Positions 6,001 to 64,000 of a stretch of DNA of 64,000 nucleotides are shown here, piece after piece. Origin of the DNA: Phoronis australis. Its lineage: Eukaryota > Animalia > Phoronida. The notes beneath the pieces are model-generated. The model was not told the origin of the DNA, ran no database searches, and saw nothing but the letters and a program-made list of their open reading frames with translations. The position numbers and the translations under genes are program-made. The number at the start of each line of letters is the position of its first letter. Position 1 is the first letter of the stretch. The DNA lies in the NCBI GenBank assembly GCA_002633005.1, contig NMRA01000042.1, positions 1,247,019 to 1,311,018 of the forward strand, in the 5' to 3' direction.

Positions 6001-9000
6001 AATTTAGTGAGTCAGGGTAAACATTCAGCCCTTGATGGCAAGCAATGCAGTAAAAAGATAAAGATTGTTGACTCAGCACTGCACATTAGAAATTATGAGG
6101 TCAAATGGTTTTAAAATATATAATTGATGAGCAAAGATCACATGGGGTATTAAAAACAGGATGTTGTTGTATCTCAGTGACCTCTATGGGTCAGTGGAGA
6201 AATGGTTCATCCTGGGAGGCACACGTGAAGACATGTACTTTTTATTATTTATTGATTCAGGGCAACACATGATACCCAACAGCTAAAAGGTCTTTAAATT
6301 ATTTTAAAACTAAACCAAAAATACTATATAAGTTTTCAAAAATTATTTCATCAAATTAGCTCTACACCATTTGCAGTTTTTGTTTTTTGAAAAGTTCAGT
6401 GACACATTATAAAGTAGTTAGGTTCTGTCCACAATTTAACAAAACATCTGCCAATATCTCAGGGATAAATGAACAAATCAATGTGCAAAGTCTTAAAGAA
6501 ATTTAAATCTCAAAATTAAAAGGAGCAAAAAAAGAAATAACCAGTCTATCTCTTAACTATTAATACTTTACTGAAAAAAACAGCAAACAGAAACCAGGCG
6601 ATACTAACATGCGCACACCCAGCAGGGGCTCAGTGGGCTCTCATTTGGCAAAGTGGACAAAAAGGTCCGCCTCAGAGAAACAAAAACTCTGAAAGAAAAG
6701 TTACAATAGAAAACGAGACAAAAGTCCATTAAAACGACAGAAACTACCAAAATTCGATGAATGCACAATTCATAGCTCTGAACGTACCCCACATTCTCAA
6801 AAATTCGAGCCCCCTATTTTTTTAGGCTGGGTGCGCGCAAGTACTGACAAACACCGTTTCACACGGACCGAGACGTACCTTGGCCAGACAGTTGCAGGCG
6901 TTCACACGCACTTTGTAGAAGCACTCATCATTCTCTATGGTAGAGGTGAGAGCTTGTCTTGAGGCAGGAGTGGTGAACTCATGTAGTGCCTCAATGGCCT
7001 GTGAAGGGACAAGAACAGAATCGTGGAAAATACAGCTAAAACGTTATGCATATATGATTTGTGAAAGCATAAAAGAGTATAGTCATAAACAGCAGTGCAG
7101 TAAACAAATATCACAAAAATTCTCCTCTAAGTAAAAACAACGCAAAAATTCCCGTTAGTAAAGAACGCCATAATTACCCTTTTAGACAAGGTACCAACAG
7201 GGCGAGTAAGGGCCCTGCATTAGTGCAACTTTGCTAGGCAACGACAACAGAGATGACAGCCATAATTCAACAAATGAACATTACTGTCAGGGGCAACACA
7301 TGTACAAGAAATCATCTCGTCCAGGTTCTGAGCACCATGCTAATCTGATTCCTTCAACAGTTCACACAATTAAGTTATGTTGCAGCTTTGTAAAGACTGT
7401 TATCCCACAAGCATGAATTCACAACAAAGGTGCAGTTGACAAGGTTGGAATGCTGATTGGGATAACAATACTTCAATTTGTTGCTTTTAATAAAAGAAGA
7501 AACTGCATTTCAGTATAGCTAACTTAATTTCAATACCGACTTAGATTGTACCAAACTTTGTTTGTGCTAACCACCGAGTTTGGCTTCACGCCAAACACTA
7601 AAATTTTCAAATAATCACTAAAGTATTTAAACACCAGCACCTTGACTTGTCGTATACACAAAATTTAAATAATTGAAATACTCAGCAGTGCATTCTATAA
7701 CCATCATACCCGACGTGTGTGCAAAAATGGTGAAGGCAGATTTTGCAAGAGCAAACTGACGCTGATCCACAACTTCTCAAAAACTTTGTTTTTAAGTACA
7801 CAGTTTCGGCTTAATGTCCAACTTCTGATTTTTAAATTTCCCAACTTAGGGGCTCCGGGCAGTAACCTATACCAATACAGTAATATGAATTTAAACACTT
7901 TTCTGTTTAACATACAATATGCTAAACAAGTGAAATAATAATTTGACAAATTTAAAAACAAAAATACCAAAATATGAAATTTTACTTCATTCGATAGCAT
8001 GATTTGTACCGTACACGACTAAAATGTCAACTATCATAAAACAAAACTTAGGCGAAGGCTCAACAATTTGTTATGTGCAATATTGAGGTCACCAGCATTA
8101 TATTCATTTATTGAATACAAATAATAGATTAATATAAAATCAGATATCAAACACACACACTTAATAGAAGTAACTATTCAACAATATGTAACATACTGGC
8201 TTACTGGAAAAAGAACAAGTGAATAATCATCCACTAATTTCTATTATCCACTTGGGCCAAAAGGAGTCGCGTTGTATGTAATATATCCATCCAGAAATAA
8301 TTGCTCTAATCTTGCACATTCAGTGGTTCACTTAAAATGGAGCTCAATCAAATGCATCTTAACAACAAATTCAGAAAACCTGCCGAGCCAAGTTTTCCTG
8401 ACAACCATGTTTACCAGGAAAAACAATTTTTATCAAAACCAATCACGAATAACCTAAAAATGAGTTCAAAATCATGACATCTCAATCCCACGTCGCAAAA
8501 AAAACTATTCCTGGCACCAAGTTGTATTTTAAGTTTCCACCAAGGTTGTTAATAAATACTCAGGCTAGGCATCCAATAAGATTACTGGAAACCTTTACTG
8601 CCCTGCTCCATGTTGATAGTTCAAATGTTACAGGAAAAGTCACAGAGGGCGGTGCTTGGTGACAACTATGCCAAGTATAAAAACAAAACTCTAAAATGGC
8701 ACAACATAATTTTACCCAGTTGCAAGATGGTTTCAGTCAAGCTACAGTTACGGAACATGTTTTTCCTGCTGACCACTTTAATTCTACTGTTGCTCGTGGA
8801 GTCAGGTATGATTTTATCTTTTCAATAACATTAATTCGTTCGTTTGCACTTGATGACCTAAGCATTAAATCTATGCTTTCAGTTAAGTGAACATTTACGA
8901 AATTCTGAGCTGTAACAAGTTCGTACCCCAAATCTAGGGGTCATCAAGAGCGAAATCTGCCTGTAACGTACTTGACCAAAGAATAACATGAAATTACACT

Positions 9001-12000
9001 TATCTTGAGTTCGTACAAAAATAAACATGAAAATATGAAAAACAATTCTGAGTTCAACTTCGAGTTCGAAGATTAGACGCTAGGCCCAGATATAATTTAA
9101 AGCCCCTCTTGACAAAGTCAGAAATGAAAACAAACATACAGTAGAATCTTCACCAGTGTTCTTATGGACAGGGGATGGATTGATGCTCAAAATGGCACCA
9201 TCTAACAACACTAATTCTACGTTATATCACAGCCTTAAACACCATTTTGGCACAGCAAGGGGTTAAATATTCTGTAATTTATAAGTTTTAACAACAAACT
9301 GAGGTAAATTATTAGTAATTGAGTTGACATGTCTACAGGATGTTCCTTGACGTTCAATTTGACCAAGCACAGAAGTGCCTCCTATGAGACATTTTCATTA
9401 CACTGCACCATTCAAGTGGATCCAGGAGAAAAAATTGAGCATAGTGAACTGATCTACAATGGGAAAAAGATCATGTGTAGCAGACATCACTTAAACAATA
9501 AAGATGGAGCTACTTTTGACATAACTACAACAAATGAAGGACAGGAGATTATAACAAGTGTTCCTCGATTCGTGCACCAAAATGTAGGAGACCAGTCATC
9601 ACATGTTAAACTAGTAGAGGCAGTGTCAGGCAGACAAGCAGGTCAGTAAAAATGTTTCTTTTAACTACTCATGATACAAAACCAACTTTCGCGGTATTCA
9701 GTTTAACAAACACTCTTTTCTTTAAAATTGATCTCATCAACAATCTAATTTTTAGCATTAATCTTTAGAAATTCAGAAGGTCATGCAACACCTTGCAAAT
9801 TTACACTGAGCTCGGTGACAACATTCACATGCCAAAACCAATATGGCTGCACTCAGGTGGAGTCACCATCTTGGGGCTTCATGTCAAAATCTGTTCACAA
9901 TCACAGCTGGATAAGAGATTAAAGTCGAATAAAGCTTTTTACTTTTATTCGGTCTAATAATAACCATTACTTTGATAGAATTCTATTTCCATTTACCAAC
10001 AAGAACATTGAAGCCATCAAGGAGTCAAGATAACACTTCCCTTTTTATTGGACAATGGCTGATGAGGCTAACAATAAAATCACGAAATAAAAAATAGCGA
10101 TAATATTCACCAACAGGGGTCTCGCACTTTTAGAACCATTTTTTCCACTGAATAATGTGTCTGAAACTGGTTCTCAAAATCCAGGACTCGTGACTATTGC
10201 CCATGTAGGCATTGCCTGTAACTTTTAGTTGCCGGTGTCAATTACAAGATCAGATGAGCGCGACACAGTTTTAGTTACCATAAAGCGATGTGGTTAAGAA
10301 TTTAACATTGCCAGCCAGACTAAATGCCCTAAAACATGCAGTTCATATTGAGGTTGAGATCTGCTGCTTGGGTGGTTTAGCGGCATAGTGCCGATGTGCT
10401 TAATTGAGTGAAGAACTATGCTAGAGAGAAGATACAACAAGCCTTACTTTAGGTTGGTTTATATAAAACATGGCCCATTAAACAGTGACCATACAACAGA
10501 ACTATGCTGCAGGTTTTACCACAAAACTCTAAAACAAGGTAAATTTAAGCCCAATATTTCACTCCACTACCCCACGCCCATAAAATGTACACTTCACAAC
10601 TTTGACATGGTATAAAACTGACATGACAATACACAGGCATTGTATCCAGGGGAAATGAAAATATAAGAGCAACTTCCACACTTAACTTACCAAAATCCTT
10701 CACAATACCAGGCATGGGGAAAGCGGCATTTGAAGAAAATACATCTCACTATTTTTGAAAAAGTCTTCTTAGTAGGTGCTGACAAAAGTTACTTCATCAC
10801 GATGTCAAATGGCACCATGTCAAGGTTGCTGCTTTATGAATAATATTAATAATTAAAGAGGATACACTTTGGCTCAGTGATTAGAAGTCTGTACTTTCGT
10901 TTCGGAGACCCAAGTTCAAATCCTGGCTAACTGGTTGACAATCGATCAGTGCACAAAGATGCCTCCTACTCCTCTGAGCTCGATTTTACTAGTGAAAGCA
11001 TGCAAGGGAGTGAATGAGAACCTGGATGTGAAAGTGATTTCAGGGACGACTGTGGAAATATGTAAAAAACAACATAATTTCTGACTGCCAGCTTTGTTTT
11101 TTTATTAGCCAATAACAGAGACACAGTGCGCTATGACACATGTACAAGTGGCCAGTTGGCTGGAGCTGTCCTTGGCACCATGTTGGTCACCCTACTGGTG
11201 GTAGCTGGAGGACTCTGGCTGATTTATAGGTAAGACTCAAGTCCTGAACTCATACAGTTGATTTGATAACGGCATGTCCTGGGACTGCAACAAACTCAGT
11301 TCAATTTCAAGTTTTCAACCCTATGACTGTTTTCAATCTCTCATAAGAAAATATAGACATGTTAAGAATAGCTGAAATTTCAATGGCAATAACTTTTGTT
11401 TTTGTGACATTTCTTAACCCATTTCAATTTGACTTTTGAAATTTTCAACCTCTGACATTTTTATCACTAACCTCCAATTTGAAATAATGTACAGTACATT
11501 GTTGTTTTTTTCATAAAACATCAAGTGAACACTCCCATGCAATTTGAAATTTGAAAATTAAGAGGATTTTAAAAGATATCAGTTAAAACATTTTTGCAAT
11601 GCAGAATTTCATGGGAGTGGGTAGGTTCCTAGTAAATCCAAGAACACAAACGAAGCATATTAAGAAAAGAAGCATTATCTTTGCTTTCTCACATTTCAAT
11701 CAATCCAATACATGTCTTACAGGTACTTTAATGAAAGAATAGCACCTTACTTCATCCAGTCAATAGAAACCAAGCCCAACAGATGCCAAGACAACTTGTA
11801 CGCCCCTAGCAACTATCTTCAAATGGACCCACCCAAAGTGTCACCAACACGCGTGACTGTCAAAGAGCAGTCCAAGTCAGCAAGAGGGGTACCAGACACA
11901 CTGGGAAACTATGACACCCTACCACCACCAAAGCCCTGCCATAACTCCCACGATGCAGCGAAGCAGGAGCCAGGTGAAGACTATGACTATATACCGCTCA

Positions 12001-15000
12001 ACTCCCCAACGACAAATGCATTACAGTACGAGAATGTAACATTAACACGAGGTCAACCGAGTATGGAAAGTGCTAAAGATTCATACACTACAACCAAAGT
12101 ATGAGACTAGTGCGATAGTGGAAACAGAGGTGTATGCAGAACAATTCTTACATGTGCCTTGTGAGTAGGGCAAGATCCTGCAGCCCTGGGGGGACCTGAA
12201 TAGATTTTTGACTGGAGATGGAACAGGAAACAGCAAGAAAATCAGGATACTCGACTCATTTAGAGAATAATTCAAAAAGGGATCGACTTGTACGGAACTT
12301 CCATGTAAAGTCACCCTTCTGTAGAGCTGTGCTCCAAAAACGCCATCCTTTAGTTGGTGTTAAAACCCATAAGCCAAACCCTTTTGTAAGGATTTCCGAA
12401 TGGCTGCCTTTTTACCTATTAAGCCTGAAACAGCACAAGAGGGGATGCCATGTTGCATGCTGTCAAAAATAGCTGTAACTAAGATATTATAAAGTACGTG
12501 TTGAATAAACAGTTGACATTGGCAGCTGCTTTGTCAGAGTAGTCCATGTGGATCTCGTTTACTGTATGTACAACCAGACTGTATGCTGATTGTTCTACAA
12601 ACCAGTACGACTAGTGTAATTCTCAAGTTGTTTTTTCAAATAAAATTACAGAGGCTGACAAAAACACCATAACAGACAATACATGGTGCTTTGTGATTTG
12701 CCATGTATTCCAAAATCTTAAGACAGATAGTGTGAGCATGATTGTCACTAACATATTGTTGTCAAAGCAACGGGTACACTGCATTGAATTAGCATTGTTA
12801 AGTCAGTTGGTAATTTTAGAGATCAAAAACCTATAGTAACTTACACAAGTGCCCAACCCCATAAATGTTGGCACATTAATCTGAGCCCTGGCAGTTGATC
12901 TGACCTACGTGTTGGCACGTGTGAATTATTCACTATCATGTCTACATTTAATAATAAGACTATACCAAACCTGATTAAAAAGCAGGGTGCATGTTTACAA
13001 CAACTTCATATGGCTATCATGAAAGTTTTATGGCACATTTGCAGTGAAAGACTGTAAGTCAACTAATCAAAACAAATTATCATGATCTGCTGAGCTGACA
13101 CAAATGTGAATAATTTTACCCTCCCTTATTGAAAAACATGGCTGTCACACGTTTAGTCATTACTTTTATGTACATATGTTAAAAAGCAGGATAGATAGTA
13201 AGGTTCATTTTACATGTATGGTAGTTCTAATGAGAAACGATCTGAACAAATGTTTATTATAATCATACATACAAGTGCAATATAATGATTGAGCAAGATG
13301 ACCTGATTTCATCAAACATTTCTACAAAGCGCAGACAGTTGACTAACACCTGCTGCATGACGTGACATCAATTATCACGGCGGCAATTTGTACTCACACC
13401 TCTTGAACTCAGTTGGAAATTGATGAAACTAAGTCAGGGTTAATGACCACCCCAGAACAAAACAGCCCAAAAGGAAAACGGAAATCAGTAGAAAATACAA
13501 CAAAATTGTCTGTAAATCAGAAGTTAAACAGCTGAAATATTTTGCTCTAATAATTCGCTGATTTTTGATGAGATGAGATTTTGACAATTTTTTTGAAAAC
13601 CACCAAATTAAGAAATTCACACACAAAAACACAAATTTAATGTATGCATCTATAGGATGGACGTATAAGTGAATCTTAGGGGCATAAGCCTTAAGTGAAA
13701 CAGGAAAACAAATTATTGCAAAAATGTTCCTGACTCAATTCGACTAAGTAAACATACAGTTGATCTTTGTGTTGACAAATTTCATATGGAAGAGACAATA
13801 CTATATGTAAAAACTTTCAATCATGTAACGGATTTATGGTTATCCAGGAATTATGACTCGTGCGTATTATGATTTGAATCCATAGAAAAAGTTTCTCTGT
13901 TTTGTACAATCCAGCACTGAAAGACAAAACTGTGAACAAGACTCACCAAATTTTGTGCGACGACATCTCGCTCATACCTCAGCTGGTACTGCCACATGTA
14001 GTCTGGTTGTTGCCAGGCAACATGCCGTAACACTTTCATATCTGGGTCAAGGCACAGCCACAGTACAGGAGAATCAGCACTGTAACAGCAGAGAAGCCAC
14101 AGGTCAAAGGTCACATAATCATAATGCCAGCTTTATGTAAAACACTTGGAATGTTAACTATTAGGATGGCACAAATAAAACCTTTAACTTACAAAATTAT
14201 TGAAAGTATCTTTTTTGGTCTAGAGGACAGTCATATGTTAGTCGTTTTTCCCAAACGTGAAGTTTAGGTTTTAAGAACCAGTTCCTCAAGCGACCAATAG
14301 AACATCGCAAAAGTTTCCCAGATTCAAAAAATATTTTACACTCGCACAAATTGACAAATCAAAATGATTAATGTCAGCGACCATTTGCATTTTCACAAAT
14401 GGCAGTGATGCAAACAATGTTCGATAGATACTATTGTGTGCGACGCATACAACCACAAAGAAATGTCCAAATCCCACAAACACAACTGTGACGATTCCTT
14501 CTGCCATGAAAATGCTTTACATTTAAATTGAGCACAAACAAAGAACAAGATGACACTGGTGTTGTCAATAAATGTCATATGCAGTTCCATTTATAAGTGT
14601 GAGTTCACCGTGTCAGTTTTCACCATGACAGTTTGGACTGTGACAAAAGTGTCAAATAAACGGCACAGTACACAGAGGAGGCAGTGTGGCCCAGTGGGAT
14701 AGGTTTCTGTTTCCTTTACTCAAGGTCGTGGGTATGGGTCCCACTAGTGGGCCACACCGCTAGAGCCTTGAGCCAGGTCTCTAGCTCCTCAGCTTGGTTT
14801 TATCTATGAATACAGCACAAAAATGGTTCCAGGTGATCAGTGCAACAGGCCTATCCAAGCACCCTGTTCACATCTGGTACGTGTACCAGACCCCCTACAA
14901 CTATTATTTTTTACAGTACACTCACTCCATGGCAGTGAGGTCCATGTCCACCTCCTCGCCAGTCATCAGAGGGATCTTCTTCTTCTTGTTCCTGTGAGTA

Positions 15001-28171: not shown

Positions 28172-28676
28172 TCCAGTGGTCTCGTCAATTTAGCCTACAA
28201 TGAAGTAAGTTCAAAACTGAAAAACTGCATATTAACAGCCATAGTCATTAGTCAATATATCTTGAGCATTCTTTGGCTTGCAAGAAGGTTGTAAAACAGC
28301 CATAGTACATATGTCGTGGACAAAAAGTTGTATCAAACATGTTCTGTTTAGGTCTCAGTAATCACAATTAACGACAGTTTGCAAAAATGTAAAAAGGTAA
28401 TTTATCTACACTGTGATGGTAAAAAAATTTTGAGCCATTCATTTCAAGTAGCTTTAACTTAAGTTGAGATTACGAAAAAAGTAGGTCTAAGATAATGATC
28501 TCCATTTACTAAATTTCTTTGTGAATCATCTCCTCAAGGAAGATGAATTGCAGCCACATGTTCTGGTTGTGCCAGTGTGGGTAAAAAACTGGCCAAATAA
28601 AACCTGATACAAAATTAGTATCGCTAAAAGCTATACTCTATCGGTAACCTTTCCTCGGTGAAAAGCTAGTTGAAGA

Positions 28677-29336
28677 CACAGGCGTCCTCAGCTTCTGATC
28701 GTCCCCAATACACTACATATAATACTACAAGGTAGGACACTCCCGACTAGAAATTCCACGGGTGCTTCACTTCAGCCGTCCATAGCAAACATAAAACTCA
28801 GTAAATTTACACAAAACAGGGGTTCAACAAACCATGAAGAATTGTTCTTTCTCCCAATACCATTCACGGTGTCCTGTTACGGCGACTTCGTAAGAAATTC
28901 GCAGTCAAAGAACAAAAATGTTCACAAAAAGCCCCCACACACGTTCTCCCTAGGCCTGTCGAGGTCAAGGACGGTACGGAAATTGCCGCTTTGTCGCGTA
29001 AAGTCACGATGTAGCTACTTCCGTAACTCACCGGCAATTTCCGTACCGTCCTTGACCTCGACGGGCCTAGGGAGAACGTGTGTGGGGGCTTTTTGTGAAT
29101 ATTTTTGTTCTTTGACTGCGAATTTCTTACGAAGTCGCCGTAACAGGACACCGTGAATGGAGAAAGAACAATTCTTCATGGTTTGTTGAACCCCTGTTTT
29201 GTGTAAATTTATTGAGTTTTATGTTTGCTATGGACGGCTGAAGTGAAGCACCCGTGGAATTTCTAGTCGGGAGTGTCCTACCTTGTAGTATTATATGTAG
29301 TGTATTGGGGACGATCAGAAGCTGAGGACGCCTGTG
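28677..29336. mobile_element. Foldback / long-TIR non-autonomous DNA transposon
   Basis: Arms 28677-28988 and 29032-29336 are inverted copies (3 substitutions and one 7-nt indel seen), 43-nt spacer, termini CACAGG...CCTGTG, flanked by 8-bp direct repeat GTTGAAGA (28669-28676, 29337-29344). Confidence 0.93.
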
Positions 29337-32700: not shown

Positions 32701-35700
32701 AAAGAACTCAAAGAATACCGAAATAATGTTGTGAGTTCATGGTGTATTCCATTTATTTTGTATTATTTATGAAAAAAATTTGCTTGTGGTGAAGACGAAT
32801 CCATTGATGAGACAATGACTGCCCTTGTGAGAACCATGCAGCAGTGATTCTCTAAGTTGATGGCTTGGCACTGTAAACATTTGCACTTTTTCCTGTCAGT
32901 AGAACCCAAGAGTCAATTGGTAGCAAAATTGTGCTTGCTTTTTTCTCACATAAGAAGTGGTTTCTGGGCTTTGGAAGAGCTGGTGGTTTTTTGTTGCTTG
33001 AAACCAATATCTGTACGTAAAGTGACATGCCATGACAAGTCAACTTATTGATCCTGGTATCGAGTCAACTGTCAGTTTAGTAAAGAATGAGTTCAGACCA
33101 ATTTCAAAACTCTTAGTGGTAAGTTAGTTTCTTTAACAGAAGGGGTTTATAGCTGGCTTAAAACTGTTCAGCCAAATAGTATTGCTCCGGAGACTGTGCA
33201 AGTTACTATGCACACCTCCCACCAGATTATTTGCATTCTTGGTCAAATTCTCAAGTTTCATCACTCATTATAAGGAAAGGACACTTATAGAATTATATAA
33301 TCTTTCTCTTGTCACCATATACCTGCAGTTTCATTTTCTGCTTACCAGAACGTGGGATCTCTGGGGTAAAAACTTTGAACAAGTACTTGAACGCTTAACC
33401 ACTAATCACTCGTAATTTGATTTTGAGCAAGCAATGATACAGGAAATGGGTATTAGTGTACTTTACTGATTGAAGATGTCTTCTTACATGACATACTTTT
33501 AGGTTTCATGTCTTTTGTCTTAACATCAGTTTTCCATTTTCTTTATGCAATGCTGTGCATTCACGGTTTCCAGGCTGGCCTAAAGCACAAGCTGGCCCAA
33601 ATTCGACAGTCGCTAGAGTGGCGAGCTCGTCTGGATTTAACCAATAAACCGGCTCCAGCCGCACCAAACATGGAGGTGGAAGAAGAGGGCGACACTGATA
33701 CACACAACGACTTCAAAAGGGAATTGAAATTGTGAGTTGTTTGTTGTTTGACTATTTCCGTGAATCTCTAATGGTACTTCAAAGCTGCCCTTTCCCTTTA
33801 CCAACTGCTTGATGAATGTGAAATCAAGAAAAAAGTTTCGCCTGATAGCCTTTTCTGTATACCTGTGTATTTTGTAATTTTCCACATTGTGTCTTTTGAT
33901 GTTCAGCTATCGCCAGGCTCAGGCTTCGGCACTTGAAGGTCTGGCGCGACTTCACAAGCTGGGTATCCCTACAAGGCGACCGGATGACTACTTTGCTCAG
34001 ATGGCCAAGACAGATGACCACATGAAGAAAGTACGAGAGAAACTACTGGCCAAGCAGCTAACCATGGAGAGGTCAGAGAAAGCCAAAAAACTCCGGGAGC
34101 TGAGGAAATACGGCAAGAAAGTGAGTGGGGCAAACGAGGGGGCATTTTTTGGCACTTATTATTATTATTAGCTTCATTCTTTGCAACTAGGAGGAGACGG
34201 GTGGTATCTTATTGAATGTTACACTGAGTGACCAAGATGGCGGGCCACCTTCAAAAGCTATCAACAAACTTTCATCAGATTGCTGTTAGTAATTAGTTTT
34301 ATGACTCTTTGATAATACTTGTATTTGTGCTGCGCGTAGTCAATGGTGACATGATGGAAATGGATAAACAGTGTAGAGTTGTAATTAGCAGGGTTTGGAA
34401 TTTTCCACGGAAACGCGGATTTCCGCTTTTTTCAAATGTTCTGTCCGGGCATTTTATTATATTTCCGCGTAAAAAATCGGATTTGATATAAAATTTCCGC
34501 GGCAAATTCCTTTCTGACCGCGGCGTTGCAGACGACGTTCACCTCGAAAAGCAGAAGTTGCTCTTTATGTTTCGGAGGAACGTAAATTGTCAACATTGCC
34601 GGGGCATCTGGGATAGCGTGGTGGGATTTTCAATGGCGTCTCGTGTTATTGTAAACCGCGCCGACAAATACTACGGCTCTGCAGCCAAAATATTACTGTT
34701 AGCATATTTTTCCGTCCAGATGCTTTAGCTGAGGACAAAAGCTTGTTTTTCTACCTATTAACAGGTGAGCATAGTTAAGAGCTTCATCAAATTTGCACTC
34801 ACAAGGGATACGCATGTATTTAATAATTGTGCTTGTCACTAATAACTCTGCCAACATTGTCACAAAAATACTTTAGTTCAAATACTGAGTATTTACACCA
34901 ATCGCTTACTTTTGAACAGGTTCAAACAGAGGTCCTGCAGAATAGGCAGAAGGAGAAGAAAAAGATGTTGGATCAAGTTAAGAAATATAGGAAAGGTATG
35001 GTATCTTAAACAACACATTGCTTGCTGGTCGTTAATACACCAGTGATATACGATAATTCTTCACCCATTTAGCATAAAATATGTCCAACTAATGGAATTT
35101 TATTTTTGTCAAATTTCCCAAGAAAAGTAAAGATTAAGAAAATGATGCATTTATTGTTACCATGGTTTGCTGTGTACAACTGATTTAAAACAAATTTAAG
35201 CTAGAGAAATCCTTAAACTAGTTTTACTAGAAAAATGGCCATTTTGACATTTATTTTTGTGCAAAACTGAGGAATGACTGTAACCAGTATTAATGCATGA
35301 CTTTTTGTTTGTTGTGTCTGCTATCGTTCTGACATTACCGTGCTTAAGCCATGCACTGAATTGAATGTTGTCTGAAAGTTGAAGAATTTGCATAGGTTAG
35401 TAATCAACTGAAACAAAGACATACAAGGAATGAATACAAAAATTATATTACAATGAGCAATAAGAAACAAAGTGAAATGGAGAAGAGATTTTGATTTTTC
35501 GAATTAGTATTAATGAAGTCTTTTTTATTATTTGCAATCATGTTTTTGTTGAACAATTAAAAACTCCACTACTACAGAATCTTGTTTTGCAATAATTTTG
35601 CTTTGAATCGAAACAAGTATGCCGCAATGTTCAATATATCTAAATTTCAACATGTTTTACTATACTCACACACATTTCCATCAGAAAAACATTTTCTATC

Positions 35701-52200: not shown

Positions 52201-54938
52201 AGAGCGTGGAAACTACGTGGCTGTGGGCACGCACAAGGGATATGTCCAGATCTGGGATATAGCTGCTACAAAGAAGGTTGTTGACCTTGATGGTCATTCA
52301 GCCAGAGTCGGTTAGTCTCACAACTTGGCCTTTGCTTTGTAATAGTATCTAGAAGTGCCAGCAACGCTTTATAAATCAAGTTTGAACAAAATGACCTAAC
52401 CAAGAGTGAACTTACAAATAACCCAGTAATGGGATATGTAATCACTGTGCAAGTCAACTTTATTTGGCCTAATTCTAGGTGCTCTTGCTTGGAATGCTGA
52501 TCTACTGTGTTCGGGCAGCCGTGACAGGTTGATCATACAAAGGGACATCAGAACTCCATCTGGTAGTCATAAGAAACTCTCTGGACACAGGCAAGAGGTG
52601 AGAACACAGGGGGTACTACCAAACTGTGGACTGAGTTGGCCTTGGTTAAAAACTTCTGCACAAATGCAAGCACATTTCATTTGGCTGTAGTGCCAGTTTT
52701 TGTCTTTGCATTCCGACCTCTACTAATGTCTACACACACACAGGCACACACGCACACGCACACACACACACACACAGTGTTCCCTCTTCTCCAACTGTCA
52801 TAACCGCTTTACCCATTTTGTCATAAGTCTGGTCATGGACTGATGATTGTGAACCAATATAGAAAATCTTGATCTGGTGTGATTATATGACGGTAACAAA
52901 GCTCTAACAAATAACAATAGCAGATTGTTTTGATTTATTGTATTGTGGGTATAGATGGACCAAAAATGCTGTAGCACAGAAAGTTTGTTAAAACCCAAAA
53001 AAGGCAGAAATACAGCCATCAATTTAATGTATGGAAAACTAACATACTAAAAATGAGGTGTCTCCACTTCTGAACAGTCAGCGTTCACAGTTAGTGACCA
53101 TCTTCGTGAATCTCATCTGAAGGCAGTATGTGCCAGTAGAAAGCTCTGGTTTCAATATTGAACTGAAACACATGTGTGCACACTTAGCACTTATCTATTC
53201 TTTAGGTGTGCGGCCTCAAGTGGTCACCTGATCACCAACACCTGGCCTCTGGTGGTAATGACAATAAGCTGCTGGTGTGGAACTCGTCCAGCACATCACC
53301 TGTACAGACGTACTCGGAGCACCTTGCAGCGGTCAAGGCAATCGCGTGGTCCCCCCACCAGCATGGGCTCCTGGCCAGCGGTGGCGGTACCGCTGACCGC
53401 TGCATACGCTTTTGGAACACATTGACAGGCCAGCCCCTACAGTACGTGGACACTGGTTCACAGGTGTGCAACCTGGCATGGTCGAAGCATGCGAATGAAC
53501 TGGTATGTCAATCTTGGGTATCACTCATGTTTTGTTGCAAACAGTGTTGCACAAATTTAAAATGAGAAACAGTAAAGCGTATATGAATATGACACAAATG
53601 TGTTGGTAGTGTGTAACTAGGTCATTGAGGAAACCCTTTGACCCTGTCTACTCCTCTTCCTGTTGTAGGTGAGCACCCATGGCTACTCTCAGAACCAGAT
53701 CCTGGTGTGGAAGTACCCTTCACTGGTGCAGATAGCAAAGCTGACCGGCCACTCCTACAGGGTCCTGTACCTGGTGAGTCCAGTCTGTCTGTGCTGACCA
53801 TACCAGAAGGCTTGCAGATAGCTTATTACAAATGTGCATGACAGACTCTGGTGTTGTTGGTTAATTTCCACCAAAAAGCAGTCACCACTGTGTGTCAATT
53901 TCCCAGGAGCGTGGAAAAACAATTTACTTTGAAATTTCCAATTTTCGGCTCATCTCTTGTGTTTTGCTTCTAAATGAAGATTAGAATATTTATCATTCCT
54001 TTTACATGAGCAGGGCTTCAGCCTGCCGATATTCCAGAGGAAGCGGCCTGTCTGTTTGTCACTGGGTCGCAATCAGTCAGCAATCTGTTTCGCATATCCA
54101 ATATGCCCAAATTGTGTCCTTGAAATCCTTATTGGCAGTGGTTACAAATCATTTTTACATTCATTGGATTTGATCATACATTTATTTCGAACATCGGCTG
54201 AAGATGCATTACGTTTATGGAGGATCTCATTGAGAAGTCTGCATAGATTATTAAATAACCAAATATCTACTGTAACAAAACTAAAGATTTTAACTCAGTA
54301 AAAGTATGTATTTTCTGAAAGTAGAAAACTCCTAGAATTTGATTTTTCTCTTTAATTAAAATATTTCTGAGCAAAACAGAAAGGCATGTTGACAGCAAGA
54401 CATCGTCAATAAACACGATTAAATTTATTTCATTTAAATGTTCAAGATGAGATCTAAAAAATGCTGTGTTGCAGTTTTCTTAAATATCATTGTGGTTTTG
54501 CTTTATGTAATTTTTTTTCATGAAAATAATAACAGTCATATTTTTGATAGCCATTCATGGAAAAGTGGAACATTTTAAAAACAATTCATGTGTTTTAGAG
54601 AACACTGAAAAGCTCAGTATCTGAAAGTTTAATTTCATGTGAATCTGATCTGTCATTTCTGAGATGCGATGTTCCGAAGTTAGCCAAGTTTGAACATTTG
54701 TCTAGGATCCCACATAACCTCAGCATGCAAGCTGTTTTGCAGTGTAGCAGTTTACACTTGCACCTGACTTACACTTGTCAACATCTTCACTTTGTGGTTC
54801 CAGGCCATGTCACCAGATGGCGAGGCGATCGTGACGGGTGCAGGCGATGAGACATTGCGTTTCTGGAATGTATTCAGCAAGACAAGGTCGACTAAAGAGT
54901 CGCAGTCCGTGCTAAACCTGTTCAACCGCATTAGGTGA
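46241..54938 (+). CDS. FZR1: Fizzy-related protein / Cdh1, APC/C co-activator
   Basis: 10 coding exons: 46241-46309, 47427-47531, 48371-48499, 49087-49248, 51000-51155, 52142-52310, 52479-52597, 53206-53502, 53669-53773, 54804-54938. N-terminal YEKRLLRQ, C-box [40 protein letters not shown]40 repeats, C-terminal IR tail (FNRIR*). Confidence 0.98.
47054..47200. repeat. Minisatellite, 29-bp unit x about 5
   Basis: Unit ATTGYGAATGTGATGTGACACTACAGTCT in the FZR1 intron after the first coding exon. Confidence 0.9.
50661..50735. repeat. Local direct duplication, about 38 bp x 2
   Basis: GTTAGAATGGAGGCCRCTAAATAAGGTTTGA occurs twice in tandem. Confidence 0.85.
52731..52776. repeat. (CA)n microsatellite, interrupted
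   Basis: Direct reading. Confidence 0.95.
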
Positions 54939-57414: not shown

Positions 57415-57672
57415 CTAGTCTTCCGGCCTTTCTGGAGGAGGTCCGCATGGCTGCAACATCTTCTCCATTAAACTAAATCTCACTCTCGCCTTGGATTCGT
57501 TCTCGGCTATGCTGAAGTAATTGAGCATATCAAACTGTCCCATGTACGCCGTGTTACTGTCACGGTGTTGATTGGTCATCCACTCCCATTTGTTGGTGTC
57601 CGCATGACCTGTACCGATGTACTTGGACTGGAGGTGTTCCAGCTGTGAGTGAATGTTGTACCTGTCACCCAT
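57415..57672 (-). CDS. SF3B5: Splicing factor 3B subunit 5 (SF3b10)
   Basis: Intronless 85-aa CDS MGDRYNIHSQLEHLQSKYIGTGHAD...MEKMLQPCGPPP; an acceptor TTTCAG just upstream (about 57682) indicates a 5'-UTR intron. Confidence 0.98.
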   Translation of the reverse strand: MGDRYNIHSQLEHLQSKYIGTGHADTNKWEWMTNQHRDSNTAYMGQFDMLNYFSIAENESKARVRFSLMEKMLQPCGPPPERPED

Positions 57673-60600
57673 GCTGCCCACCTGAAACAATGGTTGACAA
57701 TGTCAGTAAATGAGTCTGTCAAATCACTCCACTTCATGACATGCCAACAATTACAACTCCCAATACAAACAAACAGGTGCGGATATGTTACAATTGAATT
57801 TACGCTATATAAAATGGAATTTAGTGCATAAAAGTCAGACAAAATATGACGTACAATTAAAGTATTCGCTCTCACCAAATTATGCAGCAACGTTGCAAGT
57901 CTGTCAAAAACGAAACACTGGCTATTTTAGTATTTCACTCCTCTGCTAACTGGTTTCATTTTGTGCATTGCTCATCTCAACAAAAAGACGGTGTCCCTAG
58001 TTAAGAGCTTGAATCCTACAGACAGTCAGTGTCGTGTGAAAGCTTTAATGACAACAAACCACAAGCTATGCCTTTACACAACATAACCAATTATTAAATA
58101 TACTTTTCTGAGTAAGACAAGTATGTTGTCTCATTTTTAAAGCCAAATACAGCAGGTAAAATTTCAGCCTCTTGTCTCTTTGAGATAATTAGAGGTTAAC
58201 CTAAAGACCTGAGGCTCCATCACGAGATCAGTTTCTGAGAATTACACTTCAAGATTTGCTAAAACAATACAATTAATCAAGAAGTAGAAAATAAGGGGAA
58301 TATGTTTTGAAAACGCATTCTGACTACGTATTCTTGCAATGAAACAGTACCAAGACCGTTCCAAGCACAGGTTTCAATCAATGAGGGGGGCTAAACCCAG
58401 CAGAAGCAAAGCTAAGGCATCCATACAACATACAATGCAAGAAAACCCTGCGAATGTACGAACGACAGACACAAACTGTTGACCTATAGGTCTTCAAAAA
58501 CTGACCCATGGCCATAGGCATAGACTTAGTTTGAGGCCCTGGGCTGTGGGTCAATTGACCCATAGATTCTTTTTTCTAAACTGAACGCTGTTACAGCCTA
58601 TGCGTACATGCACCATTTCAGCATTTTAAGGTTGGTCAACCTCAAACTCTGGAGCTTCACAGTATCTTCTGAGCCAGGTAAAGACGGTGGTCACAAGTCT
58701 TTTTAGCCATGCCAGCCGCCGATGTTCACAACACAAGACTTGAGTCGAAGACAGAACTGAACAAATTGGAACTAGTCTACTCTATAATCCACAACCAGCA
58801 ATTCAAGCAAAACCAAAGTGGATAGTAGTGTAAAATTTTACATGATTATCAATAACCGATAAGTGTAAACGCCATCAAAATTCATTAGATCGTACTTTAA
58901 TTTGTGCCTGTCTCTTCTCCACAAGCTCGTAGAAACAAGATGGCTACTTTAAATACAAGGGTGCCACCTGGTGATGAAAGAATGTTAGTGCAGTGGTGCA
59001 GCTGGTCAAAGACCGCAGCGTCTTTGAGCTGGTGAGTGAACTTGGAATAATTATTCCAATTTCACGCAAGTGATCTTGAGATTAAGCAAGCGTTTGCGAC
59101 ATTTAGTGTGAAGCTGATAAGTAGTGGACACGAATTTGTTTGTCGTGAGTTAATGTATCTGTTTTAATTATTTTTATTGCCCTCTGTATGTTATTCTGGG
59201 TGTTACGGTATTTGTTTCCAAAGGTGGCTTGACTAGGATGGTTGGGTGGGTTACTGGCGACCTGGGACCTTTGCAATGAAAAGGATTAAGAGCTAGGTCG
59301 GATACAATGAATAACAGTAGGCCTACCTACCGTACCGAGAGGGTTTTGCATTGAACAGTTTGTCATGCCCGCGGGTTGTACCTGCCACCTCATCCACCCG
59401 TGTGACGTGAGTGCTTAGACTCTGAGCTTGCCTAAGTTGCAATTTGCTCGTAATTGGCGGAAGTGTTTTCATTTTATATCTAACTTATGACACCCTGTCG
59501 TCAAATCCTTTCTTATCTGATTAAGGAAGAAATTCAGATAACACTTGTTGATTAAAAGTGTCAAGTTATTTTTGGCAAAACTAGTAAAGTGGAATTCAGA
59601 TTTTCATTTTTAAACGTGCAATTTAATGAATATTAGTTTTTCACTGGTACTGCAGTATGCTGTGTGATGTCATCAGGTCTAAATATTGATGACAATCAGA
59701 CATTATTTACAGAACACAACTCTCTGAGGTTCTGCTGACAGGTTTTGAATGTTCTCATATAGATGATTAGACTTTTCTGGCCCCATGCCGGCTACATATT
59801 TTTACCTTTCTGAGCTCAGTACAGACCCACGTGACAATACGCCAATGTATGTATCGTCAGGTACAACCGTTCCGATTTTCAAAAGGAAAAACAGCACAAA
59901 GCAGAACGAACAGCCTTGATTTCTATAGCTAGGCTAACAAGATTGGCCTCCGAAGAGACTAAATTTATCACTCGAACTGATTTGCCTTTTGAAGTAGCCT
60001 AACACTCCGCGGACGGTTTGTAGCACTCGCAAGTTTTGGAATAACCACTCGAATAACTGTAATTTCATCTTGTTTACTTTCTCTCAACTTCTTTGTCAAG
60101 GAGGAAAAAAATAAGAGCGCCGGACCAAATGTATTGTATGATTGTATTGTGTTATAGTACTTGACTTTAATATGACGCCAGGTCATACTGCTGAGCTTGG
60201 GACAAATAATGTACAATAGGTGTCACTGGCATCCGACTCGAAATTCATCATGAAATGTCGTAAGGTATCAATGTAGTCGGGTTTAACAAAAATGCATGCA
60301 TCGATACCTAATGTACCGTAAGTTTTGTGCGTATTAAAGCTTATATGTTTTTATGTCTAAAATAATGTTTTTAAAACAATTTTTGCTCAAGTAAGTCAAA
60401 CGTATAGGCTCCTGCGCCTAAACTTAGCTCACAGGCGCACGCCGCGGCTAACCGACGTATATGTGCGTGTCTTACCAACTAGTACAGGGTGCTTTTGGTG
60501 TCTGCATCATTTCTTTTCATTGAAATATTTAACGTTAGCATATCAGTTTCTATAACTCTATCGTTTTGCAAGTTTATTCACACTGGCCTTTGCCCTCATA

Positions 60601-61406: not shown

Positions 61407-62354
61407 CTAGACACGATTTTGCTTGGCCGTTCCAACGAAGTCATCTTGGCGTGGAGGCTCTCGCCTTCTTCCTATGGTGGTGTAAGGGCCGCTAGTAGGA
61501 TACACCCCTGCCCTCCAATCCATCTCTCCTCTCATGGAGAATCTGTTAGCGAGATCGACGGATCCGTTGGTTGCAGCAAAGTTCCATTGACCCCCGCCGC
61601 CAGACTGCGCAGGCTGCTGCCAGACTTCTAAAGGTGACCATCCCAGATTAGACGGAGCGATACCCACGGAGCTGAAAACAGGAGGAGGGAACCGAGGACA
61701 AACTTGGAACGCTGAGCTCACCGTTGCGGAGGTAGACGGCTCTGAAATTAAGAGAGGTCTGAAATGAAAAGTAAGACACCATGTCTTTTTGACGACAGAA
61801 ATGTCACCTCAGAGGAATTAACGGTAATTTGGACCTCCAGACTCCACATGGAAAACCCAGTTCAAATCCTGACCTCGCTGGCAGACTATTGAGTATTGCA
61901 CAAAAATGTCTCCTACTCCTTGAACTTCCTCACAGTTGTGAATGAGAAACTGGATAAAACATGAAAAGCTATTTCCCAGATGTGGTATTAAATATTTATT
62001 TTCAAAAAACAGAAGTCTTCGCAGGCATTTGTGGACTTAAGTATAATATGAAAAATTCGTTTTCAAAATTGCGAAGGCATATATAGCTCTTGACTTCATG
62101 AATTAAAGGAGAAGTTATGCCCGAGGCTACACACCTCTGCCACCTCGTGCCATAGACTCGTCTTGTTCCTGTCGTCGACGTAGAGCTATCTGTTTGGCCA
62201 TAACCGACTGGCGGATGGCTATAAGTGTACACTTGGAACACTGGCACTCCTTAAACACGCAGAATCTCTTGTGGCCTTTCAATACACGAATTTCACCGTG
62301 GTTACGACAGCGTGCGCACTTGGGGACCCGTGATTTTGGTTTGTTGTCATCCAT
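61407..62354 (-). CDS. DM-domain (doublesex/mab-3 related, Dmrt) transcription factor, about 184 aa, subfamily unassigned
   Basis: Exon 62354-62135 encodes [12 protein letters not shown]...[36 protein letters not shown] (complete intertwined zinc-binding DM domain); phase-1 intron to exon 61741-61407, which is open to TAG. Start codon assumes the upstream exon is non-coding. Confidence 0.9.
61805..61980 (+). mobile_element. tRNA-derived SINE family S2, copy 2 (in the Dmrt intron)
   Basis: B box AGTTCAAATCC and body blocks shared with 10870-11045. Confidence 0.6.
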
Positions 62355-64000
62355 TATCTGAAATGTGACACTAGAGATTTTAATGACATTTAAAGATACT
62401 TTTTTCCTTACAGTCACCTAGTTAGAACACAGGATGAATCTCCTCTGTCGAACATATAGATATTTCGTAACTTTCAACCCTGTTTGTTTTTGCCTTATTT
62501 TGCCTTATAATGCAAAATCATCAGCGACTAAAAAACGCTTTCAAAGTTCATGGGTGTTCGTCAACCGTAAAATTCCGAATTGGAAAATGGCGCATGTGCG
62601 CATTGTCTGTGATTTGAGTTGGCAACGGAAATCGAATCAATCCTCTCACGGTAAGGAGTATTATGAGACCGATAAGGAAAAGGCCTGAATTCGATTTGCG
62701 TTTTTAGCGAACTACAGCTTTAACGACCGACCCTTTCTCGGAGTTTAAAATAGCCCTTTAGGCAGTTTACCGCAGACCCTGTGACAGCAACCTCTCAAAT
62801 TGTGCCCCTTCAATACGTGACCCTAATAAAATAGATTTTCACCAAGCTGGAATATAATAAAGTAAACTTTGACCTTTTAGGCGTCATGTCATTCTCGGAA
62901 ATAGTTGAACCGAACTAGCTTCCTACAAGGCGTTCCGTTCACTCGTTCCGACTAGGTGATGCAATTTCTCTCCATGATTTTTCTCCGGATCTCTCTGCCC
63001 TTGGTAGGGGTTTATTACGTTGCTTTTAGTTTAATATTCCCTGATTTAGTGCTTATTTTTGGATCCTAATACCCACAAAAGGTCAATATCATGACCTTAC
63101 AGCGTAACATTCCCAGGTGTAAAAAGTGACTATTTCTCTTTAATTTTTGTTGATGCATAGTTTCTAGCGGTTGGCATCTGGGGCCAGCGTTTTAAAACAT
63201 GTCGCGAGGGTGTGAAATTGGCGACAACCAAGAGTCATGGGGATGCTGAAGTCGGCGGTTGGGACCGGAGGAATCCTCCGTTCCTGAGCTCCAACCATCC
63301 TGCGTGACGTACGCAATCGATCGCACACACACTCATAAAATGCTTTTATCCCTCCCTAGGCCTACAATAACTGTCACATTGCGTGACTCCAGAATCGTTG
63401 CTCCAAATTTTATGTTTCAATTAAATTGGCTGCGTTTTCCGAAATTTGTGATCTAAACTTGAAGAACATTTCTTCCTTGCTTACCGCCGAAAACGCAAAT
63501 TTCTGGTATCGATTCGCCTCTAAAAATGAGAGTTTCCCGTTCGCACACTGCTATATTATTATTTTTTATAATCTTACATCGTGTAAGAGTACTGCTCATA
63601 AATTTATCTATATCTTCTTGCTTTCTCCGATTTCCCGATTACATGCAACTTGCATGTGAGTCTCCGATGCAAAAATGGCTACATTTGTTATACATGTACA
63701 TAACATTTAGCTACTTAGCACATACCCATACACCAGAACCTTACCGAACAAATTACACTAATAAGTCATGAAGCATCCAATTAAAATAAACCTCGATGAC
63801 ACCACTAAATGTCTAGTACCGTATTTAGACTTGAAAGAAGTACCTATAGCCATATCTACTTACCCGATTGCCTTCAGCCGACTGACGTCCTCAGTTTATG
63901 TTCCCATACTGACGGTCATGTACTTATAGCACGTGCGAAAAAGATACAGTTGACAAACATAACGTAGATGAGACCACGAAAATGTTGCCACCATCACGTG

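Follow-up and report, generated by a model that had tools for sequence, protein, structure and literature searches.

A gene nested in a TAF2 intron of Phoronis australis is spliced with and without its ectodomain exon and may encode receptor and adaptor-like forms

Results

Structure of the nested gene

We analyzed a 64,000-nucleotide (nt) stretch of the Phoronis australis genome (GCA_002633005.1, contig NMRA01000042.1, positions 1,247,019 to 1,311,018 of the forward strand), hereafter the window, in which a small gene lies on the plus strand within an intron of TAF2. The TAF2 gene is encoded on the minus strand, and the host intron spans 6999–13946 (6,948 nt). This interval is one intron, as the flanking exons match residues 622–662 and 666–699 of human TAF2 with three window residues between them. 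The 22 other TAF2 introns were 246–1,454 nt long, as estimated from tblastn ends, and the 3' end of TAF2 lies beyond the window. The host intron is thus several times larger than the others, as the first-pass annotation of this DNA had claimed, and the nested unit occupies about 5 of its 7 kb. The TAF2 protein was nearest to that of Lingula (71% over 832 residues) among 24 full-length proteins aligned of 47 matches, and was placed outside molluscs in an unrooted tree whose set held no named annelid, echinoderm or arthropod.

The nested gene consists of four plus-strand exons (E1–E4) at 8757–8805, 9339–9641, 11109–11229 and 11723–12104, with GT..AG ends at all introns. The coding lengths of 49, 303, 121 and 382 nt give intron phases of 1, 1 and 2, and the joined frame is open and encodes 284 amino acids (aa). 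The coding part of exon 1 (8757–8805) ends in phase 1 and encodes a predicted signal peptide. Exon 2 (9339–9641) is a cassette exon of 101 codons with phase 1-1 boundaries, encoding a predicted beta-rich ectodomain. Exon 3 (11109–11229), which is covered by spliced reads, encodes a stalk of about 16 residues with one Cys (C129) and a predicted transmembrane (TM) helix with a GxxxGxxxG pattern and no charged residues. The coding part of exon 4 (11723–12104; read depth 9–38) encodes a predicted cytoplasmic tail of 126 aa. Hydropathy exceeded 1.6 in Kyte-Doolittle 19-residue windows solely at starts 1–4 and 131–142 of the 284-aa protein; the two hydrophobic segments, at the N-terminus and at residues ~134–157, match the separate signal-peptide and TM exons proposed earlier. 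The exon structure and every protein motif quoted in that proposal were likewise recovered from the translated frame.

A motif scan located a TATA-like box at 8676–8682, with a GC box at 8647, on the plus strand as a putative promoter. Five read ends were stacked at 8726 in one RNA run (X3, see below), 50 nt past the TATA-like box. An in-frame upstream ATG (8727–8756, plus strand) is an alternative start codon that would lengthen the signal peptide by 10 residues, including K and R. The read 5' ends at 8726 would leave this ATG with no leader, but read ends stop short of true starts. The plus-strand 3' untranslated region (UTR; 12105–13680) contains AATAAA at 12504 and 12639 and was covered by reads up to ~13,680. 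Read ends from five molecules were stacked at 13679 in run X2, and a canonical polyadenylation signal was absent near ~13,680. An 84-codon ATG frame starting at 12218 on the plus strand within this UTR is probably due to chance. An Rfam scan of 6500–14200 gave zero matches.

Transcription and splicing

We used a contig set from study P1 (X1; we assume RNA, and splicing is visible in its contigs), together with three raw RNA runs from study P2 (X2, X3 and X4), from each of which ~18–19% of the reads were sampled. Plus-strand spliced reads were found for all three junctions predicted in the first-pass annotation (8805/9339, 9641/11109 and 11229/11723). Reads in X2, X3 and X4, respectively, numbered 8, 15 and 0 for E1-E2, 18, 4 and 0 for E2-E3, and 15, 22 and 5 for E3-E4; X1 contigs span E1-E2 and E3-E4. 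The E3-E4 cut was aligned 6 nt leftward, and the skipped length of 493 nt equals that of intron 11230–11722. The transcript is assigned to the plus strand because the exonic depth was almost wholly from first mates on the minus strand, and the TAF2 exon at 13947–14075 showed the opposite mate orientation. The depth of exon 4 was 19, 16 and 2.6 times that of this TAF2 exon in X2, X3 and X4, ratios that rest on few TAF2 reads and are uncorrected for 3' bias. The nested gene is therefore transcribed and spliced.

A further junction, which the first-pass annotation had overlooked, joins E1 directly to E3 from donor 8805, which is also used in the E1-E2 reads. It skips exon 2 in frame and was found in 10, 14 and 2 reads of X2, X3 and X4. 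Exon 2 inclusion was ~0.57 in X2 and 0.40 in X3, so that the exon was skipped in about half of the transcripts; in X1 the exon-2-skipped contig was the deeper one (38 vs 15). In-frame skipping of exon 2 is thus observed in junction reads of X2 and X3 and in contigs of X1, that is, in two studies. No exon-2 read was present in the X4 sample, even at 82% identity, where 3–4 fragments were expected (P ~0.03). We considered a divergent exon-2 allele in X4 and rejected it, as no X4 read matched at 82% identity. Tissue and genotype are inseparable as causes of the skipped-only pattern, because other alleles are present in X4 as well.

The mRNA without exon 2 stays in frame and encodes 183 aa, comprising the leader, a 16-residue ectodomain with a single Cys, the uncharged TM segment and the full tail. 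By the -3,-1 rule, the signal peptide would be cleaved after VES. The base at 11130 was identical in 34 of 34 (X2) and 27 of 27 (X3) minus-first-mate reads, which is consistent with both isoforms arising from a single locus; a processed copy as the source of the form lacking exon 2 seems less likely.

Separately, ~8213 was linked to the 6998 acceptor of TAF2 by two reads in X2 and another two in X3. On the minus strand of 8100–8600, a GTAAG donor is present at 8204, and opposite-strand depth was 0.7–0.9 over 8102–8368. These reads may mark a cryptic exon of TAF2, or a transcript that runs divergently from the promoter of the nested gene and is spliced into downstream TAF2 exons.

Exon 2 and the immunoglobulin question

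The first-pass annotation proposed an immunoglobulin (Ig)-superfamily immune or allorecognition receptor. The 101-codon phase 1-1 exon on which this was based is present and has the length and phase of an Ig-type domain, a feature that is not Ig-specific, and the tail contains an ITIM (immunoreceptor tyrosine-based inhibitory motif). The canonical Ig pattern is a Cys pair in the B and F strands with a Trp in the C strand. This pattern is absent: exon 2 has Cys only at positions 18, 39 and 63, none in its C-terminal half, and no Trp, with an NxT site at 23. The long form has four extracellular Cys in total. The frequent skipping of exon 2 stands against the receptor assignment. Atypical members of the superfamily do exist, such as Alr (10.1101/2022.03.04.482883; for this and all other papers cited, statements refer to the parts of the text accessible to us).

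Fold prediction for exon 2, run without an alignment of relatives, gave beta strands, and the matched rows were mostly Ig-like. A sequence search against the PDB returned only four chance rows (E≥0.36), and an Atlas feature search gave bacterial clusters with a best score of 0.78 and no lead. We consider it likely that exon 2 forms one beta-sandwich ectodomain.

The tyrosine-motif tail

The tail contains YLQM (Y189), YDTL (Y221), overlapping YDYI and YIPL (Y245 and Y247), LQYENV (Y260) and a C-terminal TKV. Five of its eight tyrosines lie in YxxΦ motifs, compared with 1.19 expected in 20,000 shuffles (p=0.0024), and D, E or N directly precedes four of the five (0.57 expected, p=0.0009). A relaxed pairing of the immunoreceptor tyrosine-based activation motif (ITAM), YxxL/I-x(6-12)-YxxL/I/V, matched twice (0.03 expected, p=0.002). 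The strict form Yxx[I/L]x(6-9)Yxx[L/I] was absent, as YIPL-x9-YENV has the fitting spacing and ends in V. The ITIM pattern [I/L/V/S]xYxx[I/V/L] matched once, at LQYENV, which is also a YxN site. Single motifs were not significant in shuffles (ITIM 0.16, YxN 0.46, YxxM 0.12, PxxP 0.84); the PDZ-type end gave p=0.023. Among the 38 stop-free frames of at least 90 aa in the window, the exon-4 frame had the highest YxxΦ count. In the Atlas search, a PAG/LIME1 cluster ranked second with 0.76, below 0.9 and thus a lead only, and one family or clan was common to six of the ten best family-bearing matches.

Homology, paralogs and variation

Searches against longer proteins confirmed none of 64 candidates for exon 2 at E≤1 and none of 68 for exon 4; near-length proteins, which would include the 183-aa form, were outside this search for both exons. 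A phmmer search of exon 4 alone against 1.84 billion representatives gave one match and none credible, as this match, a 1,181-aa tandem-repeat protein aligned in 17 stretches, was rejected as an artefact. Pattern matches in metagenome and viral contigs were confirmed in 0 of 108, 0 of 138 and 0 of 4 cases. The best relatives of the host TAF2 exon in the protein collection were only 80–83% identical, and an exact look-up of one neighboring small protein found no match. Close relatives of this animal therefore seem absent from the collection, and the blank homolog searches are for that reason weak evidence of fast evolution.

No paralog was found within the window or, at 82% identity, among the X1 contigs listed. 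An exon-3-like peptide at 7283–7345 was rejected as a paralog remnant, since 5 of 60 shuffled queries scored equally high.

Variants were taken from the 40 best-supported of 193 rows and 40 of 132 rows. The coding variants listed numbered 14, nine nonsynonymous and five synonymous, with 4 to 1 in exon 2. No coding indel or stop was among them, in line with a check proposed for frame-disrupting mutations; several indels fell in the 3' UTR, and others in introns. The X1 contig carried 5 changes in 382 coding nt and 17 in 462 UTR nt (Fisher p=0.048; the UTR count was derived from contig totals). At least 8 of 284 residues, about 3%, differ between X1 and the window.

Other features of the window

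Short interspersed repeats at 6642–6840, 10139–10180 and 10845–11027 attracted many reads from other loci. The stretch 10904–10973, tRNA-derived by eye, has a 77% copy at 61850–61920. At 28674–29175, overlapping opposite-strand frames encode near-identical peptides, indicating that a long inverted repeat lies immediately upstream of TAF2. We take the plus-strand frames at 33878–34171 and 53206–53565 to be EBP2-like and FZR1/CDH1-like, and the minus-strand frames at 57415–57702 and 62127–62417 to be SF3B5-like and DM-domain-like. These four frames can be used as synteny markers.

Discussion

Comparison with known systems

Transmembrane adaptor proteins (TRAPs) are defined by a short extracellular part, a single TM segment and a long non-catalytic tail with several tyrosine motifs (PMC2803307). 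The first two features are found together in the short isoform and not in the long one; the third is present in the tail, with 126 aa, five YxxΦ motifs and no Pfam domain. The vertebrate lymphocyte TRAP SIT (SHP2-interacting transmembrane adaptor) has 196 aa, a 22-aa leader, an 18-aa ectodomain with one Cys, and a 136-aa tail with ITIM, YxN and YxxL/V sites (PMC2193021). The short form likewise has a leader, one TM segment, a 16-aa ectodomain with one Cys, and a 126-aa tail with ITIM-, YxN- and YxxL-type sites, and it shares YxxM with TRIM, in which this is the p85 site (PMC2212462). The juxtamembrane CxxC of the raft TRAPs (LAT, LIME, NTAL, PAG) is absent, with no Cys within 10 residues past the TM segment, and in the accessible sources SIT, TRIM and LAX also lack it. 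Unlike SIT and TRIM, with which it has no detectable sequence relationship, the short form belongs to an invertebrate, arises when an exon is skipped in a gene whose other product has a 100-aa ectodomain, has a class I PDZ-type end and lacks an N-glycosylation site in its short ectodomain. SIT and TRIM are disulfide homodimers; the one ectodomain Cys is present here, and dimerization and phosphorylation are only proposed. By analogy, the short form resembles a non-raft TRAP and the long form an Alr or FcoR receptor, and we claim no membership in the TRAP, Alr, FcoR or PTC2 families.

Hydractinia Alr (10.1101/2022.03.04.482883) and Botryllus FcoR (PMC12582321) are also invertebrate single-pass proteins with one module per exon, ITIM- or ITAM-like tails and ectodomains altered by alternative splicing; in the Botryllus FF genes, splicing is genotype-specific (PMC12582321). 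Their ectodomains have several modules, of which the splice variants described keep at least one, whereas the nested gene has one and loses it entirely; no homology to them and no cluster was seen. The V-set and I-set domains, Fn3-like spacer and six invariant Cys of Alr are absent from its one 100-aa module and four extracellular Cys. Biomphalaria PTC2/GRC genes, also spiralian, share the lineage-restricted single-pass type without a known domain or outside homolog. They are clustered genes of 166–530 codons with alleles 3–85% divergent (PMC7494358), whereas the nested gene is alone in the window and about 3% divergent, and its tyrosine-motif tail is not described for PTC2/GRC in the accessible text.

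In mammals, nested genes commonly lie on the opposite strand in the largest intron of a broadly expressed host (PMC11694760), the pattern seen here. None of the papers listed in a literature search described a nested gene within TAF2. The nesting itself is ordinary, and the location inside TAF2 is likely incidental.

Interpretation of the two isoforms

On balance, we favor the reading that two mRNAs would encode a 284-aa receptor form and a 183-aa adaptor-like form, with the tail as a scaffold for phosphotyrosine docking. Residues Y189, Y221, Y245, Y247 and Y260 would be substrates of a kinase of the Src or Syk/Shark type. The phosphotyrosines would recruit SH2 proteins, with PI3K p85 at YxxM and Grb2 or an SHP-type phosphatase at LQYENV, and a PDZ scaffold may be bound by the C-terminal TKV. 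In the long form, the tail would be coupled to ligand sensing. The short form would work without ligand as an adaptor of the SIT or TRIM kind, probably as a dimer held by its single stalk Cys and its glycine-zipper TM segment, and the splice ratio would set the ligand-dependence of signaling. An immune cell is the likeliest single context, which we suggest tentatively. The stronger proposal, that an invertebrate independently evolved a SIT-like adaptor and produces it from a receptor gene whose sole ectodomain exon is skipped, with a ratio set by tissue or genotype as suggested by the adaptor form alone in X4, seems unlikely as a whole.

Several points weigh against the two-form signaling reading. 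No exon matched a Pfam model, PAG and LIME1 included, and with no homolog, conservation was shown for none of the tail motifs. The motif tests were picked after the sequence was seen, and shuffled proteins score 0.8 in the Atlas a third of the time. The YxxΦ motif is also a clathrin-adaptor sorting signal, so its excess fails to single out SH2 signaling. The ratio of nonsynonymous to synonymous polymorphism (pN/pS) was 0.5–0.7 among the variants listed, indistinguishable from neutral (p=0.2–0.3). Codon bias exceeded the intron background and was not frame-specific (frame 0, 0.016; frame 1, 0.004).

In a different account, the product is a protein of adhesion, guidance or cargo type with no immune role, its YxxΦ motifs serving mainly endocytic or lysosomal sorting and its PDZ ligand anchoring it at junctions or synapses. 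The YxxΦ excess suits sorting signals equally, the PDZ-type end exceeds chance, and neither a cluster nor strong polymorphism was seen. The acidic or Asn residues before four of the tyrosines and the relaxed ITAM pairing suit kinase substrates instead, and five sorting signals in one tail are more than usual; we give this account a low probability. An immune or allorecognition receptor with a single Ig-superfamily domain, whose exon-2-skipped mRNA would be functionless leaky splicing of a symmetrical exon, appears less probable still. It would explain the predicted strands and phase 1-1 boundaries of exon 2, which skips in frame by construction, and the one ITIM, as defined in 10.1101/2022.03.04.482883. 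The skipped form, however, made up 40–60% of the X2 and X3 junction reads, the deeper X1 contig and the sole form in X4; no paralog was detected in the sets searched; and the divergence of X1 from the window is at the low end of that among snail PTC2 alleles (PMC7494358).

The blank homolog searches, near-neutral pN/pS from few variants and frame-independent codon bias would also suit a transcript that is antisense and spliced but non-coding or in decay, with an open frame free of selection. Against this, the signal peptide, TM segment and tail each lie on their own exon in the correct order and phase, the frame is kept in both isoforms, the tail has its YxxΦ excess, and the listed indels spare the coding exons. 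We regard such a transcript as very improbable.

Significance

Transmembrane adaptors have been described from vertebrate lymphocytes. We found no invertebrate one in the literature, of which few subscription papers were within reach, and homology searches miss such proteins because they evolve fast and are short and of low complexity. If the nested gene serves only trafficking or adhesion, it is ordinary, another orphan membrane gene within an intron. If the short form signals, invertebrates can possess this layer of tyrosine signaling, and the loss of one symmetrical exon would suggest itself as a simple way for a receptor to become an adaptor. A phase 1-1 cassette ectodomain exon together with a YxxΦ-rich tail offers a screen for further genes of this kind.

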